DNA from: Patescibacteria group bacterium
Lineage (GTDB): Bacteria; Patescibacteriota; Patescibacteriia; Magasanikbacterales; GWA2-37-8
Length of the DNA stretch: 17,975 nucleotides
Direction: 5' to 3'
Assembly (NCBI GenBank): GCA_004321885.1
Contig: SCQK01000003.1
Coordinates: 1-17,975, forward strand
This document shows, one piece after another, positions 2,375 through 17,975 of the stretch. Every line of letters starts with the position of its first letter. Positions within the stretch are counted from its first letter, which is position 1. The position numbers and the translations under genes were made by a program. A model generated the notes under the pieces. It did no database searches and was not told where the DNA came from. It saw nothing but the letters and a program-made list of their open reading frames with translations.

Positions 2375-2505
2375 GGGTCTGTCGCCAAATCACCGCATCT
2401 GTCATTCCTGCGCAAGCAGGAATCCAAAACAACAGCCTTTTAAGCCAAAATATGGATTCCTGCTTTCGCAGGAATGACAACTTTAACCATTTGGCGACAG
2501 ACCCC
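2375..2505. repeat. composite palindromic element: outer 16-bp IR GGGTCTGTCGCCAAAT enclosing two inverted family-A hairpins
   Basis: Outer IR sits at 2375-2390 and 2490-2505. Inner hairpins are TGTCATTCCTGCGCAAGCAGGAATC (2400-2424) and GGATTCCTGCTTTCGCAGGAATGACA (2454-2479). Listed ORFs 2149-2427, 2239-2589 and 2292-2600 are mirror translations of this palindrome (MDSC.RRND...ATDP on both strands). Confidence 0.8.
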
Positions 2506-4866: not shown

Positions 4867-4944
4867 GGGTCTGTCGCCGAATTACTATTTCTGTCATTCC
4901 TGCGCAAGCAGGAATGACAGAAATAGTAATTCGGCGACAGACCC
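4867..4944. repeat. 78-bp perfect palindrome, family A with GGGTCTGTCGCCGAAT terminal inverted repeats
   Basis: GGGTCTGTCGCCGAATTACTATTTCTGTCATTCCTGCG|CAAGCAGGAATGACAGAAATAGTAATTCGGCGACAGACCC. The two halves are exact reverse complements. It lies between the DHS stop (4970) and the DinD remnant. Confidence 0.9.
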
Positions 4945-14231: not shown

Positions 14232-15350
14232 ATGATAAAAAAAATCCTGTTTATCAGTTGTTCGGCCGGTTCGGGCCATATTAAAGCCGCCGAGGCCCTA
14301 CATCTGGCCTGTGCTAAAAAATACCCGCAAATCCAATCGTGGCACTTCAATATTTCCGACGACTGGAATTTTCTTCTGCGCCATTCAGTCACCACTCCTT
14401 ATGAATTCGCCTTAAAGCATTACCCGGCGCTTTTCGGCGCGGCCTACAAACTCACCGACAGCGCCCCCCTCACCAAGGCGGGCCAGCTCTTTAATTTTTT
14501 GCTCCGTTTCGGCGTGCAAAAACATTTGGATAAAATAAGCGAGTTCGGCCCGGAGGCCGTGGTCTATACCCACTTCATCCCGGCGCTGATGCTGTCTAAA
14601 TTTTTGGACGCGCCGCAATACATGCTCGTTACTGATTATTACGCGCACAAAATTTGGCGCGTGCCAAACATGAAAGCGTTTTTCGTGCCGACCGAAGAAA
14701 CCAAAAAAAGCATGGGCAAATTCGCGCCCGCTTGCGCGATTACCGGTTTACCAGTAAGCCCGGAATTCAAAAAAGTAAAACCCATCGCGGAGCTAAAAAC
14801 AAAACTGGGCCTGACAAACGACCAGCCGGTTGTTTTATTTATGCCGACGGTTCCCGGAAAAGTGGATATTGGGAAAGTGGTGCTGTCATTGCGAACGGAA
14901 CGAAGCGGAGTGAAGCAGTCCCCCGCGATTGCGGATGGGATTGCTTCGCCCTATCGGGCTCGCAATGACAAACAGCTAAACATTATTATTATCCTCGGAA
15001 AAAACCAAGGGGATATCGCGCCTTCTGAAAATTTACGGGTCATTAAGCCGGTCCCAAACATAGACGAATACATGCGCATTGCCGACGTCATCGTCACCAA
15101 AGCCGGGGGTATGAGCATTACCGAAATCGCCTATTTGCGCAAGCCAATGCTCATCATCAACCCTATTCCGGGCCAGGAAGAATACAACGCGAAAATTTTC
15201 TGCAAGCTTGGCTACTGCCTCGTTGCCCGCGACAACGACGAACTGGAAGCAAAAATAAAAGCCGCTCTAAGCGGCCAACTTTTCTTCAAGGCGCCGCCGC
15301 TACAGGATGCGGCGGAAAAAATTTTGAACACGATTTTTGGGCAGGGGTAA
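14232..15350 (+). CDS. GT28-family glycosyltransferase of the MGDG-synthase/UgtP (diacylglycerol glycosyltransferase) type
   Basis: N-terminal ILFISCSAGSGHIKAAEAL (cf. UgtP LILTANYGNGHVQVAKTL), central MLVTDYYAHKIWRVPNMKAFFVPTEE, and C-terminal VTKAGGMSITEIAYLRKPMLIINPIPGQEEYNA (cf. [33 protein letters not shown]). Confidence 0.75.
   Translation: MIKKILFISCSAGSGHIKAAEALHLACAKKYPQIQSWHFNISDDWNFLLRHSVTTPYEFALKHYPALFGAAYKLTDSAPLTKAGQLFNFLLRFGVQKHLDKISEFGPEAVVYTHFIPALMLSKFLDAPQYMLVTDYYAHKIWRVPNMKAFFVPTEETKKSMGKFAPACAITGLPVSPEFKKVKPIAELKTKLGLTNDQPVVLFMPTVPGKVDIGKVVLSLRTERSGVKQSPAIADGIASPYRARNDKQLNIIIILGKNQGDIAPSENLRVIKPVPNIDEYMRIADVIVTKAGGMSITEIAYLRKPMLIINPIPGQEEYNAKIFCKLGYCLVARDNDELEAKIKAALSGQLFFKAPPLQDAAEKILNTIFGQG
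14884..14970. repeat. 87-bp element bounded by 11-bp inverted repeats TGTCATTGCGA/TCGCAATGACA, inserted in-frame within the glycosyltransferase CDS
   Basis: Its ends share TGTCATT/AATGACA with family A. It is 87 bp (29 codons), encoding LSLRTERSGVKQSPAIADGIASPYRARND in the inter-domain loop. That loop is about 21 aa longer than the same loop in UgtP. Confidence 0.5.
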
Positions 15351-15354
15351 ATTC

Positions 15355-15822
15355 CTATTGCCTTCTCTCGTCCAGCCCCTGACTCTCGGGCTGGTAATTG
15401 GGCTGGATATAGACGCCTGACTGATTGATGTCTTCGTAGCGGTTTAGCGCCAGCTTGATGGCAAATGTGGTGATGGACCAGGCGGCCAAAATAATAATGA
15501 GCCCGATGACAGAATTAAACATCCATTTTTTCGCTTTAGTCACCTGCTCGTCGTTGCCCCCGGCCGTCATCCACAAAACTCCGGCATAGATGATAATGAC
15601 AACCATGAGCAGTCCCACCAGGCTCAACATAATGCGAATCATTCCGGCCGCGGTGATGCGCGGGTCCACTGGTTCGCCATAGCCCGCGCCTTTTTGGCCG
15701 CCGGCGGCCTGAAACTGGTTGCTGATATCCGCGCCCACGCTTTTATTTACGTCCGCGCTAAAAACAGGCGCCGCGAAAGCGAAGAGGGAAACGAGGAATA
15801 GTAAAATAATTATTTTACGCAT
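15355..15822 (-). CDS. VirB2/TrbC-like pilin family protein (paralog 1 of the tandem array)
   Basis: Signal peptide MRKIIILLFLVSLFAFAAPVFSA, then core LSLVGLLMVVIIIYAGVLWMTAGGNDEQVTKAKKWMFNSVIGLIIILAAWSI. Polar C-terminal tail with no Cys. Start is moved to the ATG at 15822, which overlaps the upstream stop as TGAtATG. Confidence 0.75.
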   Translation of the reverse strand: MRKIIILLFLVSLFAFAAPVFSADVNKSVGADISNQFQAAGGQKGAGYGEPVDPRITAAGMIRIMLSLVGLLMVVIIIYAGVLWMTAGGNDEQVTKAKKWMFNSVIGLIIILAAWSITTFAIKLALNRYEDINQSGVYIQPNYQPESQGLDERRQ

Positions 15823-15823
15823 A

Positions 15824-16339
15824 TCACCACAAATTGCTCCAAAAATTCTTGGCCGAGCCGGTAAAGCCCTTGCCAAAACCCTGCCAAAATCCGCCGGTCT
15901 GGGCCCCGGCGCTTTGGCCCACCTGCCCGGCGCCGGGCTCGGTGACCCGAAACACGCCCATTAAAATAAAGGCGGTCAGGCTATAGGCCGCCACCACGAT
16001 AATCAGGCCGACAACCGAAGAGCGGATAATTTTTTGCGCCTTTTCTACGCGCTCGTCATTGCCCCCGGCTGTCATCCACAAAATGCCAGCGTAGACAGTC
16101 AGTATCAAAAAAACAGTGCCTGTGAGCGACAAAATCACCCGAATTATCCGGCCTACATTTTCGGACAAGGTGGTGTCTGTCACGTTTGTTTCAAAACCGC
16201 CGGTGCCGGCCACATTGGAAGCCATCCCGCCCGGGCCAATGCCGATATCGGGCGCGGCCAAGACCATCGTGACGGATAAAAAGAATAGAGAATAGAGAAT
16301 AGAGAATAGAGAGACGAAGAAAATAATATAATTTTTCAT
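15824..16339 (-). CDS. VirB2/TrbC-like pilin family protein (paralog 2) with a Gly/aromatic-rich C-terminal tail
   Basis: MKNYIIFFVSLFSILYSLFFLS signal peptide, encoded by 4x GAATAGA. Core LSLTGTVFLILTVYAGILWMTAGGNDERVEKAQKIIRSSVVGLIIVVAAYSL. Start is at the ATG at 16339; the listed ORF start at 16447 is an upstream extension. Confidence 0.75.
   Translation of the reverse strand: MKNYIIFFVSLFSILYSLFFLSVTMVLAAPDIGIGPGGMASNVAGTGGFETNVTDTTLSENVGRIIRVILSLTGTVFLILTVYAGILWMTAGGNDERVEKAQKIIRSSVVGLIIVVAAYSLTAFILMGVFRVTEPGAGQVGQSAGAQTGGFWQGFGKGFTGSAKNFWSNLW
16283..16310. repeat. 4 perfect tandem copies of the heptanucleotide GAATAGA within the signal-peptide coding region
   Basis: 16283-16289, 16290-16296, 16297-16303 and 16304-16310 are identical. 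On the coding strand, (TCTATTC)4 encodes SILYSLFSI. Confidence 0.9.
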
Positions 16340-16343
16340 AATG

Positions 16344-16907
16344 CTATAAGGGTGAGCAATCCTGCGCGCAACTACTAACCGGCTGTCCCTGACAAGTGGA
16401 GGGACTTTGGCCGACATAACAAGTTCTACTTTCGAAAACGCCTCCATTAATTTTTACAACACAACAACCAGCATCATTTTGTGAACCGCTTGTCTGCTGA
16501 TTTTGTTGCTGTGACGCTGCGCCGCCGGATGAATTACTCCCGCCCATCTTCGTGGTCACAAAATACGTAATCGCGTAAGCCGACAAAGTGATAAACAAAC
16601 CGATAATGCAGGCCTTGATTATCTTATGCGCTTTTTCCACTTTTTCCTGCTCGCCCTGGGCCGTCATCCAAAGAATGCCGGCATAAACCATTAAAATCAA
16701 AAATAAAGTGCCCACCAGCGACAAAGCGGTTTTAACCACCGTGCCCACCGTGGTGGAAAGCTCTTTTTCCAGGCCAACGTCTCCGACCGCGTTGTCCAAA
16801 GTTTTCATGGCATTGCCCAATCCCTTTTGCGCCAGAGCATCGCCGGACAAAAAGAATAGCGAATAGAGAATAGGGAATAGAGAAACGAGGAAAATAATTT
16901 TTTTCAT
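16344..16907 (-). CDS. VirB2/TrbC-like pilin family protein (paralog 3) with a Cys-rich C-terminal domain
   Basis: MKKIIFLVSLFPILYSLFFLS signal, core LSLVGTLFLILMVYAGILWMTAQGEQEKVEKAHKIIKACIIGLFITLSAYAI. A Ser/Gln-rich linker leads to a tail with 6 Cys (CCVVKINGGVFESRTCYVGQSPSTCQGQPVSSCAQDC). Confidence 0.75.
   Translation of the reverse strand: MKKIIFLVSLFPILYSLFFLSGDALAQKGLGNAMKTLDNAVGDVGLEKELSTTVGTVVKTALSLVGTLFLILMVYAGILWMTAQGEQEKVEKAHKIIKACIIGLFITLSAYAITYFVTTKMGGSNSSGGAASQQQNQQTSGSQNDAGCCVVKINGGVFESRTCYVGQSPSTCQGQPVSSCAQDCSPL
16854..16881. repeat. degenerate heptanucleotide tract (GAATAGC GAATAGA GAATAGG GAATAGA) in the signal-peptide coding region
   Basis: Same position and register as 16283-16310 in the adjacent paralog. 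The two flanking ~60-bp gene 5' ends are about 85% identical. Confidence 0.8.
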
Positions 16908-16926
16908 ACATATACCCCTCTCATTG

Positions 16927-16948
16927 CCCCTCCCTTAAAAGGGGGGGG
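16927..16948. repeat. family B hairpin CCCCTCCC-TTAAAA-GGGGGGGG upstream of pilin paralog 3; contains a G8 tract
   Basis: G8 tract at 16941-16948. Lies 20-40 nt upstream of the ATG at 16907. Confidence 0.55.
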
Positions 16949-16970
16949 ATAAAGGGTGAGGTTTTAAAAA

Positions 16971-17564
16971 TCATTCATGACAACACACATTATCAACGCC
17001 GCCCGGACATAAACCCGACTCTTTAACTTTTGGCGGTAAACAGCTGGCGGCAGGGCCGCAAGAGCCAGTGGAAGAATACTCGCATTTCGTAATACAATTG
17101 CCACTTCTACAAACACTATTGTCACCGCATTTTGTATTATCGTTCTGTCCTTGGCAAGACGCCACTTGCCCTCCCGCGCCGCTCCCCCCGCCACCCCCCA
17201 CCAGATTGGTAAACACAAAGCGCGTAATGGCGTAGGCGGCCAAAACTATCACCAAGCCGATTATCGCCGTTTCCATTATCTCCTTACCCTTCTCCGCTTT
17301 TTCCGGCTTACCCAAGGCTGTCATCCACAACACGCCGGCGTACAGAATAAGCCCGAAAAAAATAATGCCGATGAGCCCCAGGCCCACGCCGATAATGTCG
17401 CCGATAAGTACCGGCACTGTTTTTTGGCTGATGGGCAGTTTGGAAAGCTCGGCGTTGTCGGCCGCGGTCTTTAAGCCGTATTTATCCTGCGCCAAAACAG
17501 CGGCGGCGGATAGAAGGCCGGTGATCAGCACAAAAATAAGGATTATTTTTTTTGTCAGTGACAT
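16971..17564 (-). CDS. VirB2/TrbC-like pilin family protein (paralog 4) with a Cys-rich C-terminal domain
   Basis: MSLTKKIILIFVLITGLLSAAAVLAQ signal, core IIGVGLGLIGIIFFGLILYAGVLWMTALGKPEKAEKGKEIMETAIIGLVIVLAAYAI. A Gly-rich linker leads to a tail with 10 Cys (…CQGQNDNTKCGDNSVCRSGNCITKCEYSSTGSCGPAASCLPPKVKESGLCPGGVDNVCCHE). Start is at the ATG at 17564; the listed ORF to 17696 runs through leader repeats. Confidence 0.75.
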   Translation of the reverse strand: MSLTKKIILIFVLITGLLSAAAVLAQDKYGLKTAADNAELSKLPISQKTVPVLIGDIIGVGLGLIGIIFFGLILYAGVLWMTALGKPEKAEKGKEIMETAIIGLVIVLAAYAITRFVFTNLVGGGGGSGAGGQVASCQGQNDNTKCGDNSVCRSGNCITKCEYSSTGSCGPAASCLPPKVKESGLCPGGVDNVCCHE

Positions 17565-17576
17565 AGTTATACGTTG

Positions 17577-17661
17577 GCTCCATAGTCCCCGCAGGGGCTG
17601 TGGAGCCAGCTTGCAACTTGCAACACGGCTCCACAGTCCGCCTTTGGCGGAACTATGGAGC
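17577..17661. repeat. family D hairpins (GGCTCCAYAG ... CTRTGGAGCC) plus direct repeat CTTGCAA x2 in the pilin leader
   Basis: 17577-17608 GGCTCCATAG-TCCCCGCAGGGG-CTGTGGAGCC and 17626-17661 GGCTCCACAGT-CCGCCTTTGGCGG-AACTATGGAGCC. Confidence 0.75.
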
Positions 17662-17678
17662 CACCCGTGAAAGTATTT

Positions 17679-17777
17679 CCCTACAGAGGGTTGCACGCGC
17701 GACCCCGACTGTGGATTCCTGCTTTCGCAGGAATGACAGTTGAAACAGGAACGCGCGCGCGAACCCTCTGTAGAGGG
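17679..17777. repeat. nested palindromic element: outer IR CCCTACAGAGGGTT..CGCGCG / CGCGCGCG..AACCCTCTGTAGAGGG around a family-A core (17713-17738)
   Basis: The core GGATTCCTGCTTTCGCAGGAATGACA is identical to 2454-2479. The outer arms are about 22 bp. Confidence 0.75.
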
Positions 17778-17790
17778 TTCCCATATTAAA

Positions 17791-17975
17791 CTAAGGCGTA
17801 ACAGGCGTGCCTCCGGCTCCGGTTGTCGCCGAAACCAAAGACTTCAGCACAAAGTTGGCCAAGGCGTAAGCCGCGAAAATAATAATCAGACCGATAATGC
17901 CCGAGAAAATCCATTTCTTGCCCTGGGTAACTTTCTCGTCATTGCCGCCGGCCGTCATCCAGGTAAAGCCGCCGA
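17791..17975 (-). CDS. VirB2/TrbC-like pilin family protein (paralog 5), N-terminus beyond the window
   Basis: The minus-strand frame gives GGFTWMTAGGNDEKVTQGKKWIFSGIIGLIIIFAAYALANFVLKSLVSATTGAGGTPVTP* with a TAG stop at 17791-17793. No start lies in the window, so it is absent from the ORF track. Confidence 0.7.
   Translation of the reverse strand, partial: GGFTWMTAGGNDEKVTQGKKWIFSGIIGLIIIFAAYALANFVLKSLVSATTGAGGTPVTP

Follow-up and report, generated by a model that had tools for sequence, protein, structure and literature searches.

A probable inverted dimer of a widespread REP-like repeat in frame within a glycosyltransferase gene of a Patescibacteria genome

The stretch of DNA analysed here, in the following called the window, is the whole contig SCQK01000003.1 (17,975 nucleotides) of a metagenome-assembled genome of a Patescibacteria group bacterium. 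It carries, at positions 14884-14970, an 87-bp palindrome with perfect 11-bp termini, which lies in frame within a gene for a glycosyltransferase of the monogalactosyldiacylglycerol (MGDG) synthase/GT28 type. Very probably, this segment is an inverted dimer of a widespread repeat resembling the repetitive extragenic palindromes (REPs), fixed in frame in the gene, with the encoded peptide being a neutral passenger. In-frame insertion of 20-30 residues by REPs and by Rickettsia palindromic elements (RPEs) is already documented, so that the event is of a known type and not a new mechanism. The repeat family itself is more interesting than the single insert, since it is extremely widespread, stands outside the four published families of CGTC-tagged REPs and recurs in essential genes. 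The coordinates of the features are collected in Table 1.

The segment had been described in an earlier note on this DNA, made from the letters alone, and its exact coordinates, its codon phase and its inverted repeats were confirmed. The letters read TGTCATTGCGA ACGGAACGAAGCGGAGTGAAGCAGTCCCCCGCGATTGCGGATGGGATTGCTTCGCCCTATCGGGC TCGCAATGACA, the terminal 11-mer TGTCATTGCGA being exact at 14884-14894 on the plus strand and present as its exact reverse complement at 14960-14970. With at most one mismatch, this 11-mer has four matches in the window against 0.34 expected, a number reached in none of 200 shuffles. It has to be borne in mind that an 11-bp inverted repeat within 100 bp is not unusual by itself, approximately 0.4 being expected per 18 kb according to a rough estimate of our own. 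Nested in the element is a second inverted repeat (GAAGCAGTCCC/GGGATTGCTTC), together with a small hairpin at the apex, and the 96-nt stretch containing the element folds with -28.3 kcal/mol as DNA (z = -5.9) and with -52.9 kcal/mol as RNA (z = -6.6), the shuffled sequences never being as stable in either calculation. Both arms match the family pattern GTCATTGCGA-N(5-25)-GAAGCARTC, these being the only two matches in the window (0.00 expected). Each unit consists of TGTC, ATTGCGA(G), a variable mini-hairpin, GAAGCAATC and CC. Folded alone, the right unit forms the ATTGC/GCAAT stem and an inner 4-bp stem (-7.3 kcal/mol, z = -2.5). The right-arm inner segment GCCCGATAGGGC recurs identically in three other genomes, a variant similar to the left arm occurs in a locus from Anaerolineales (L148), and the family dimer closest to the window element is 85% identical to it. 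No Rfam family matches the element within the region 14780-15080, either at the gathering thresholds or at E ≤ 10. At the right edge, the terminus ATGACA together with the host TATTAT located 16 nt downstream (14965-14992) resembles a sigma-70 promoter in 10 of 12 positions; two promoter-like sites were found in the region, 1.4 being expected from shuffles.

Concerning the reading frame, the 87 bp correspond to 29 codons and extend from position 2 of codon 218 to position 1 of codon 247 of the open reading frame (ORF) 14232-15350. The encoded peptide is (L)SLRTERSGVKQSPAIADGIASPYRARND(K), i.e. residues 219-246 as a whole with codons 218 and 247 contributed in part, and the predicted tryptic peptide of the insert is QSPAIADGIASPYR. 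Two of the six reading modes of the element are free of stop codons and the gene uses one of these two; with a length of 3 x 29 nucleotides and a stop-free mode, the frame is therefore not interrupted, and the repeat contributes 28-29 residues to the protein. The GC content of the element is 58.6%, as compared with 49.0% in the remainder of the gene. The flanks, GGTGC and AACAG, have no direct repeat in common.

The host protein contains both expected domains, MGDG_synth (PF06925; residues 16-162, 7.5e-16, 59.1 bits with the cut-off at 25) and Glyco_tran_28_C (PF04101; residues 246-352, 7.1e-12, 46.1 bits with the cut-off at 22), the latter beginning only at position 27 of the profile. The AlphaFold model, built with a 77-sequence alignment, exhibits a confident GT-B fold, with a mean predicted local distance difference test score (pLDDT) of 90 and a predicted template modelling score (pTM) of 0.89, and its best match among solved structures found by Foldseek is MGD1 from Arabidopsis thaliana (4wyi, E = 6e-16). 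All 13 columns that are invariant across the 77 sequences are kept in the window protein, including G13, G15, H16, T134, D135, K290, G292, E298, P313, G314, E316 and N319. With the two domains, the GT-B fold, the conserved G-loop and the PIPGQEE motif, the protein is thus of the GT28/MGDG-synthase-like kind, just as the earlier note had stated.

In the model, helix C-alpha1 (residues 213-225) continues into the first approximately seven element-encoded residues, the remainder of the insert being a low-confidence loop followed by strand C-beta2 (250-254). Residues 227-244, all of them inside the element-encoded part, are the sole stretch with a pLDDT below 50. The insert is therefore located in the connection between C-alpha1 and C-beta2 of the C-terminal Rossmann-like domain, outside the inter-domain linker. 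The earlier proposal of a linker longer by about 21 residues was thus close as to the length (22 residues) and wrong as to the place, whereas the idea of a landing in a tolerant surface loop with the frame preserved agrees with the intact ORF and with the loop predicted by the model. In the Rossmann-type folds, the alpha-to-beta side lies opposite the loops that bind the substrate; the site is therefore probably tolerant, because it faces away from the nucleotide-sugar cleft. The same protein is eight residues shorter than most homologues between C-beta2 and C-beta3 (residues 256-285; window 15000-15040), with helix C-alpha2 largely missing. This shortening is also present in a few homologues without the insert, the G256-D285 span covering 29-58 residues in general and 30 in the window protein.

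The alignment with homologues from other genomes, which the earlier note had recommended as a check of lineage specificity, comprised 76 proteins sharing 22-42% identity with the window protein, and none of them contains the segment (0/76). Distant orthologues with the same 29 residues, which would have spoken for a coincidental inverted repeat, were thus looked for among these 76 homologues and not found. Between the columns L202 and G256, the window protein has 55 residues, as against 31-38 residues (mode 33) in all the homologues. The net gain is accordingly 22 residues, compared with the 29 codons of the element, so that either 5-7 host codons were lost or the helix of the ancestor was unusually short. 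Two metagenome scans yielded neither a further copy of this element variant nor a near-identical strain. A 20-mer from the left flank, used as a probe for the empty site, gave one chance match in an unrelated HD-domain gene (L241).

The repeat unit proved to be distributed far beyond the window. Scanning viral contigs with the pattern delivered at least 120 stretches and scanning species-representative genomes with a narrower pattern again at least 120; thus at least 120 contigs of each kind, phage-like and genomic, contain the motif, the genomic ones belonging to at least 15 phyla. The latter cover Chloroflexota, Omnitrophota, Bacteroidota, Elusimicrobia, Deltaproteobacteria, Fibrobacterota, Spirochaetota and Gemmatimonadota, as well as Planctomycetota, Nitrospirota, Acidobacteriota, Alpha- and Gammaproteobacteria, Margulisiibacteriota, Zixibacteria and others, and they include an isolate genome, that of Bradyrhizobium sp. 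CSA112. The 240 loci listed contain 394 units with the consensus (C/T)GTC + ATTGC + GA + G(inner segment)C + GAA + GCAAT + CC/CT. Among these 394 units, the base preceding GTC is T in 207 and C in 163, and the tail after GCAAT is CTC in 148, CCA in 89 and CCC in 67, both arms of the window element having CCC. The search of the literature for the motif and peptide strings TCATTGCGAG, CGAAGCAATC, VIASEAKQS and CHCEERSDEAIS returned only primers and unrelated matches.

Structurally, the unit is composed of a 5-bp stem, a GA/GAA internal loop and an inner hairpin, the inner segments covering 5-29 nt and the whole units 26-45 nt. Inner segments of type 1 are perfect hairpins with highly variable stems, e.g. 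GCGAAGC, GCCCCGAAGGGGC, GTCCCGATAAATCGGGAC and GGCTGACGAAGTCAGCC, and those of type 2 have the form GGAGC...GCGAC with an additional GA/GA layer. In the unbiased viral sample, 48 of the 102 distinct inner segments form fully paired hairpins with a loop of at most 5 nt, as compared with 10% of shuffles, and 15 different stems of at least 4 bp occur among the perfect inner hairpins; such compensatory variation shows the inner hairpin itself to be under constraint. The commonest inner segment of the family is GCGAAGC, which is called an "extraordinarily stable" DNA mini-hairpin in PMC13037366. A reading of the GA/GAA internal loop as a kink-turn was rejected by inspection, there being no 3-nt bulge. 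Two viral contigs (L002 and L052) have identical flanks and an identical inner stem with the inner loop inverted (GATAAATC and GATTTATC), which gives the impression of an inner hairpin turned round with respect to the outer stem.

Inverted dimers with the tags outward number 78, the window copy included. They are 66-126 bp long, measured from GTCATT to AATGAC, by which measure the window element has 85 bp, and their spacers elsewhere in the family cover 7-58 nt. Many of them combine a type-2 arm with a type-1 arm, as does the window element. Apart from tandem arrays, no target-site duplication was seen in the window element or in the 77 other dimers; the bases flanking the dimers are usually Y and R, making the palindrome longer by one pair. 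The median identity of dimers is 0.79 within genomes and 0.76 between them, a weakly informative difference, and 7 of the 27 within-genome pairs are at least 0.89 identical. Single units are also arranged head to tail in tandem arrays in viral contigs (L047 2694-2818, L021 28-101 and L022 5117-5172). The L047 array consists of four copies with a period of 33 nt, i.e. 11 codons, and the frame of its first two units stays open over at least 60 codons in either direction; arrays of this type may give rise to peptide repeats.

Most units of the family (79%) are located outside long open frames. With the units near locus ends left out, 79 of 370 (21%) have a frame that remains open over at least 60 codons to the left and to the right, compared with 65% of random positions. 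Ten of these open-frame cases were examined with Pfam: seven are inside recognisable proteins, namely the 3'-5' exonuclease domain of PolA, PheT, LpxB, NadA, a histidine-kinase/receiver protein, a UvrD-like helicase and an SPP1-type portal; two others, located at a GT2-HAD junction and in a C-terminal extension of a portal protein, are ambiguous; and in one the unit is probably 5' of the true gene start. The PolA, UvrD-like helicase and PheT hosts belong to the same classes in which intragenic REPs have been noted previously, i.e. PolI, UvrD-type helicases and tRNA synthetases (PMC3733652).

A direct view of such insertions is offered by lpxB of Omnitrophota, where orthologues 69-90% identical to the repeat-bearing LpxB and with nearly identical flanking DNA were compared. 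One and the same site occurs in four states: a full dimer, a single type-2 unit (peptide VIARSAATKQS), a rearranged unit, and a GCCATT remnant alone; in the orthologues at 70-76% identity the site is mostly empty. Gain, loss and rearrangement of the family thus take place in frame in real genes, and the lpxB polymorphism together with the near-identical dimers within genomes points to the family's ongoing turnover. One of the LpxB proteins compared (P0082, locus L242) additionally has an unrelated 33-residue insert further upstream.

With regard to the known repeats, REPs have been sorted into a GTAG-tagged and a CGTC-tagged superfamily, the latter with the families CGTC-1 to CGTC-4 (Di Nocera, De Gregorio and Rocco 2013, BMC Genomics 14:522; PMC3733652). 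According to the same source, the CGTC REPs have a terminal CGTC, often TGTC, stems of 8-9 bp that open with A-T pairs, a loop of 4-5 nt and the tail CCA; they occur mostly as inverted dimers, have no dedicated transposase and were reported in five phyla; their intragenic dimers encode 20-30 residues; and many REPs are argued to act as RNA elements. CGTC-1 equals dRS3 of Neisseria and RPE-6 of Rickettsia, and RPE-4 equals CGTC-4 (PMC3733652). The window element agrees with them in having TGTC unpaired at its two outer ends (14884-14887 and, on the complementary strand, 14967-14970) and a stem beginning with A-T and T-A (ATTGC...GCAAT) in the right arm and in all the pattern matches; its short CCC tails resemble the consensus CCA. 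In both groups inverted dimers, often heterodimers, can fold into one long hairpin, most copies are intergenic with some intragenic, and no dedicated transposase is known. The differences are the compound stem and the spread over at least 15 phyla and phage-like contigs instead of five phyla. The strings ATTGCGA, ARND and KQS are absent from PMC3733652 and its supplements. Because of the compound stem and of this absence of motif and peptides, the family is placed beside the four CGTC families and within none of them as defined. CGTC-3 would be the nearest of them, judging from its peptide VIAGLDPAIH, which back-translates to an ATTGC... stem.

The window itself contains relatives for comparison. 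The termini TGTCATT/AATGACA, which the earlier note had reported as shared between the element and intergenic palindromes of a "family A", were indeed found in both, the palindromes being those at 2400, 2453, 4892, 12978 and 17712. These intergenic palindromes fit CGTC-1 exactly, and the termini are shared because the element and the CGTC-1 units have the tag and the AT-starting stem in common. There are six canonical CGTC-1-type units in the window, all intergenic, with TGTC, an 8-bp ATTCCNGC stem, a loop of the GNAA type and a CCA tail; the one at 12978-13004 folds with -9.0 kcal/mol (z = -4.8), leaving only the 4-nt tag and the 3-nt tail unpaired. On the minus strand at 14056-14103, a further CGTC-1-type unit has its loop replaced by a nested hairpin, CCCGCC-TTTG-GCGGG, which shows that compound hairpins arise within the CGTC-1 family too, in the very Patescibacteria genome from which the window comes.

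Among the other palindromic elements, the Rickettsia RPEs resemble the present family as palindromic repeats residing in frame in unrelated housekeeping genes and encoding a fold-compatible peptide. They differ in belonging to another sequence family, in their host, which is Rickettsia and not Patescibacteria, and in copy number, the 18-kb contig having a single intragenic copy; the published stem and loop dimensions of CGTC-4 and CGTC-1, to which RPE-4 and RPE-6 correspond, do not apply to the element unit. For the RPEs (Ogata et al. 2000, Science 290:347), a length of about 150 bp is given for RPE-1, and 44 intragenic copies have been reported in R. conorii. REPINs (REP doublets forming hairpins) similarly consist of two inverted units with a short spacer folding into one long hairpin, and near-identical copies occur within some genomes in both cases; the tag is, however, TGTC in the element family and GTAG in the REPINs, which flank a gene for a REP-associated tyrosine transposase (RAYT). 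REPINs are reportedly mobilised by RAYTs, a view ascribed to Bertels and Rainey (2011). Searching with tblastn for RAYT/Y1 HUH enzymes, using 10 RAYT/TIRYT sequences against 241 loci and the window (approximately 1.9 Mb, 394 units), gave no hit at E ≤ 1e-5. Bacterial MITEs (transposable elements of the miniature inverted-repeat kind), such as Correia, ERIC and the Coxiella QMITE, are likewise small, have terminal inverted repeats and are occasionally fused in frame with host ORFs. The window element, on the other hand, has no target-site duplication and no parent insertion sequence was seen in the window; moreover, it is built of two autonomous hairpin units and not of a pair of transposase-binding ends. 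Of the two affiliations suggested by the earlier note, REP-like can thus be retained and MITE cannot. To call the event rare, as the note had done, is also an overstatement, since intragenic REP dimers (PMC3733652) and in-frame fusions of RPEs and MITEs with host ORFs (PMC10969869, PMC5896051) are on record and the same family resides in PolA, PheT, LpxB, NadA and a portal protein.

Based on these results, the course of events may be outlined as follows. A copy of the REP-like dimer has become fixed inside the glycosyltransferase gene of the Patescibacteria lineage; it would have arrived by the same process as spreads the CGTC-type REPs, for which candidate movers would be a trans-acting enzyme acting on single-stranded DNA (HUH/Y1 type) through a hairpin intermediate, or hairpin-driven recombination. 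Some 5-7 host codons would have been lost at insertion or later. Selection would have filtered only for frame and site, leaving the peptide a neutral passenger, for survival in a gene requires the right phase and a tolerant site, which makes the observed fit a matter of the filter and not evidence of function.

Several observations do not sit easily with this explanation. The unit is not the 8-9 bp helix with a 4-5 nt loop of the published CGTC REPs, and in the nearest-neighbour model the commonest unit types and the left arm (z = +0.8) are not significantly stable when folded alone. The support for the unit structure rests, for this reason, on the compensatory variation of the inner hairpin and on the published stability of GCGAAGC-type hairpins. 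A 22-mer of the left arm has no match in the JGI metagenomes, and only one family dimer is present in the 18-kb contig. The net gain of 22 residues being smaller than 29 codons, a simple clean insertion leaves the locus incompletely explained. Finally, the closest homologue in the protein collection is only 42% identical in the alignment; with no close orthologue at hand, the empty site cannot be demonstrated for this gene and the insertion cannot be dated.

Other explanations have to be weighed against the neutral REP-like dimer. It appears improbable that the peptide has gained a role, whether within helix C-alpha1, as a loop facing the membrane or binding a partner, or in compensation for the short C-alpha2. 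The first seven or so element residues do end the helix at positions occupied by host residues in homologues, the protein is eight residues short between G256 and D285, and the 11-bp termini remain perfect. On the other hand, most of the insert forms a coil-like stretch of low confidence, the only one in the model, a fact that also tells against the domestication proposed in the earlier note; no homologue has or needs the segment, the C-alpha2 shortening is seen in insert-free homologues as well, and the occurrence of the family at unrelated sites of unrelated proteins speaks against a specific role. A function at the RNA level, with the hairpin in the mRNA modulating expression by ribosome pausing between the domains, as an RNase site or through an internal promoter for what lies downstream, is slightly less probable still. 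It could draw on the stable predicted RNA fold, on the RNA role argued for REPs and on the promoter-like match at the right terminus. The number of such matches is, however, not above that in shuffles, Rfam gave nothing even at E = 10, the hairpin is not followed by a T-run, and no comparable structure is found at the site in homologues. The related idea of a leader element, with single units of the same strand situated just 5' of the ribosome-binding sites of phage contigs, was rejected, as 13 such cases stood against 27 on the control side; the units at other loci therefore show no orientation bias towards downstream starts.

That the repeat was wrongly spliced into the gene during metagenome assembly is very unlikely. 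The contig, which has many palindromes, does stem from a metagenome-assembled genome; nevertheless, the element is shorter than a typical read, its flanks continue the same gene and frame with the conserved residues kept, and comparable in-frame copies occur in many independent assemblies, with the family present in an isolate genome, too. The least credible explanation is an ancestral coding segment with a coincidental inverted repeat. Even though the inverted repeat by itself could well have been met by chance in 18 kb, this view is already contradicted by the match of both arms to the two-block family pattern, by the identity of the right arm to units in other phyla and by the absence of the segment from all 76 homologues.

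The neutral in-frame dimer being preferred for the window, the unit itself may, as a tentative proposal which falls somewhat short of being probable, represent an undescribed fifth type of CGTC-tagged REP. It would have the form (C/T)GTC-ATTGCGAG-(variable mini-hairpin)-CGAAGCAATC-CC and a compound hairpin rich in G-A mismatches; it would be near-unchanged across at least 15 phyla and phage-like contigs, repeatedly in frame in housekeeping genes and turning over among close relatives, with no RAYT nearby.

The remaining content of the window is ordinary for Patescibacteria, comprising the genes for PNPase, ribosomal protein S15, an NYN-domain protein, deoxyhypusine synthase, agmatine deiminase, a CN-hydrolase, two nucleoside/phosphoribosyl enzymes and an AAA/DUF4143 protein, and three tRNA genes; no transposase domain and no insertion sequence was seen among the window genes. 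Paralogous genes similar to T4SS pilins (PF18895) number six or more at 13059-13472 and 15355-17975; five form a tandem run on the minus strand, and each gene ends in a conserved segment. A stretch AGAATAGAGAATAGAG is repeated at 16273-16327 and 16844-16898. A second palindrome family, CCCCTCCCCTAAAAGGGGAGGGG, occurs at 9444-9470, 13589-13667, 14191-14227 and 16913-16965, three copies being directly 3' of tRNA genes (Leu on the minus strand, Arg and His) and one between pilin-like genes; these may be terminator-like hairpins lacking a T-run. The S15 ORF (12609-12983) encodes 124 amino acids, of which residues 11-90 form the Pfam domain. At its annotated start it runs into the CGTC-1 unit at 12978-13004, and at its 3' end it shares 17 nt with the NYN-domain gene; the real start probably lies further downstream.

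Table 1 Features of the window and of the lpxB site used for comparison
Feature	Position	Strand	Basis
MGDG-synthase/GT28-type GT-B glycosyltransferase gene (host), 372 amino acids, frame intact	14232..15350	+	ORF, Pfam, AlphaFold
Element: inverted dimer of two repeat units, tags outward, tails inward	14884..14970	.	pattern match, fold, inverted repeat
Left unit: TGTC tag, ATTGCGA, inner segment ACGGAACGAAGCGGAGT, GAAGCAGTC; long type-2-like variant	14884..14920	+	pattern match 14885-14920
Spacer: both tails (CCC/GGG) and small apical hairpin CCGC-GATT-GCGG	14921..14938	.	whole-element fold
Right unit: TGTC tag, ATTGCGAG, inner hairpin GCCC-GATA-GGGC, GAAGCAATC; canonical type 1	14939..14970	-	pattern match 14939-14969
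Inverted dimer of two CGTC-1-type units (TGTC, ATTCCTGC, GNAA loop, GCAGGAAT, CCA), 26-nt spacer; intergenic	2400..2479	.	
Perfect 78-nt palindrome (37-nt arms, 100% complementary) around the CGTC-1-type unit 4892-4919; intergenic	4867..4944	.	
CGTC-1-like unit, loop of 6 nt; intergenic, immediately upstream of the end of the PNPase gene	9710..9738	-	
Single CGTC-1-type unit, TGTC ATTCCCGC GAAA GCGGGAAT CCA; intergenic	12978..13004	+	
Single CGTC-1-type unit; intergenic	17712..17738	-	
Omnitrophota lpxB hot spot	L196 6340-6520, L242, L243, L244		orthologue comparison

For the glycosyltransferase gene of this uncultured lineage the consequence is small: it has a repeat-derived loop of 28-29 residues, which is to be recognised as an insert in annotation and in structure comparison. 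The repeat motif, in turn, spans the range from Patescibacteria to Bradyrhizobium and phage-like contigs, and the family yields many spurious small ORFs (with peptides such as VIASEAKQS, SLRG..RSN and LLR.ARND) along with genuine in-frame inserts in essential enzymes. A catalogue of the family would improve gene calling in metagenome-assembled genomes, would provide cross-phylum data on the protein sites tolerating insertions of 10-30 residues, and would sharpen the question of how the CGTC-type REPs, having no known transposase, move. Should the reading as a fifth type be true, the family would be to the bacteria at large what the RPEs are to Rickettsia, with either phages or a conserved host function spreading it.

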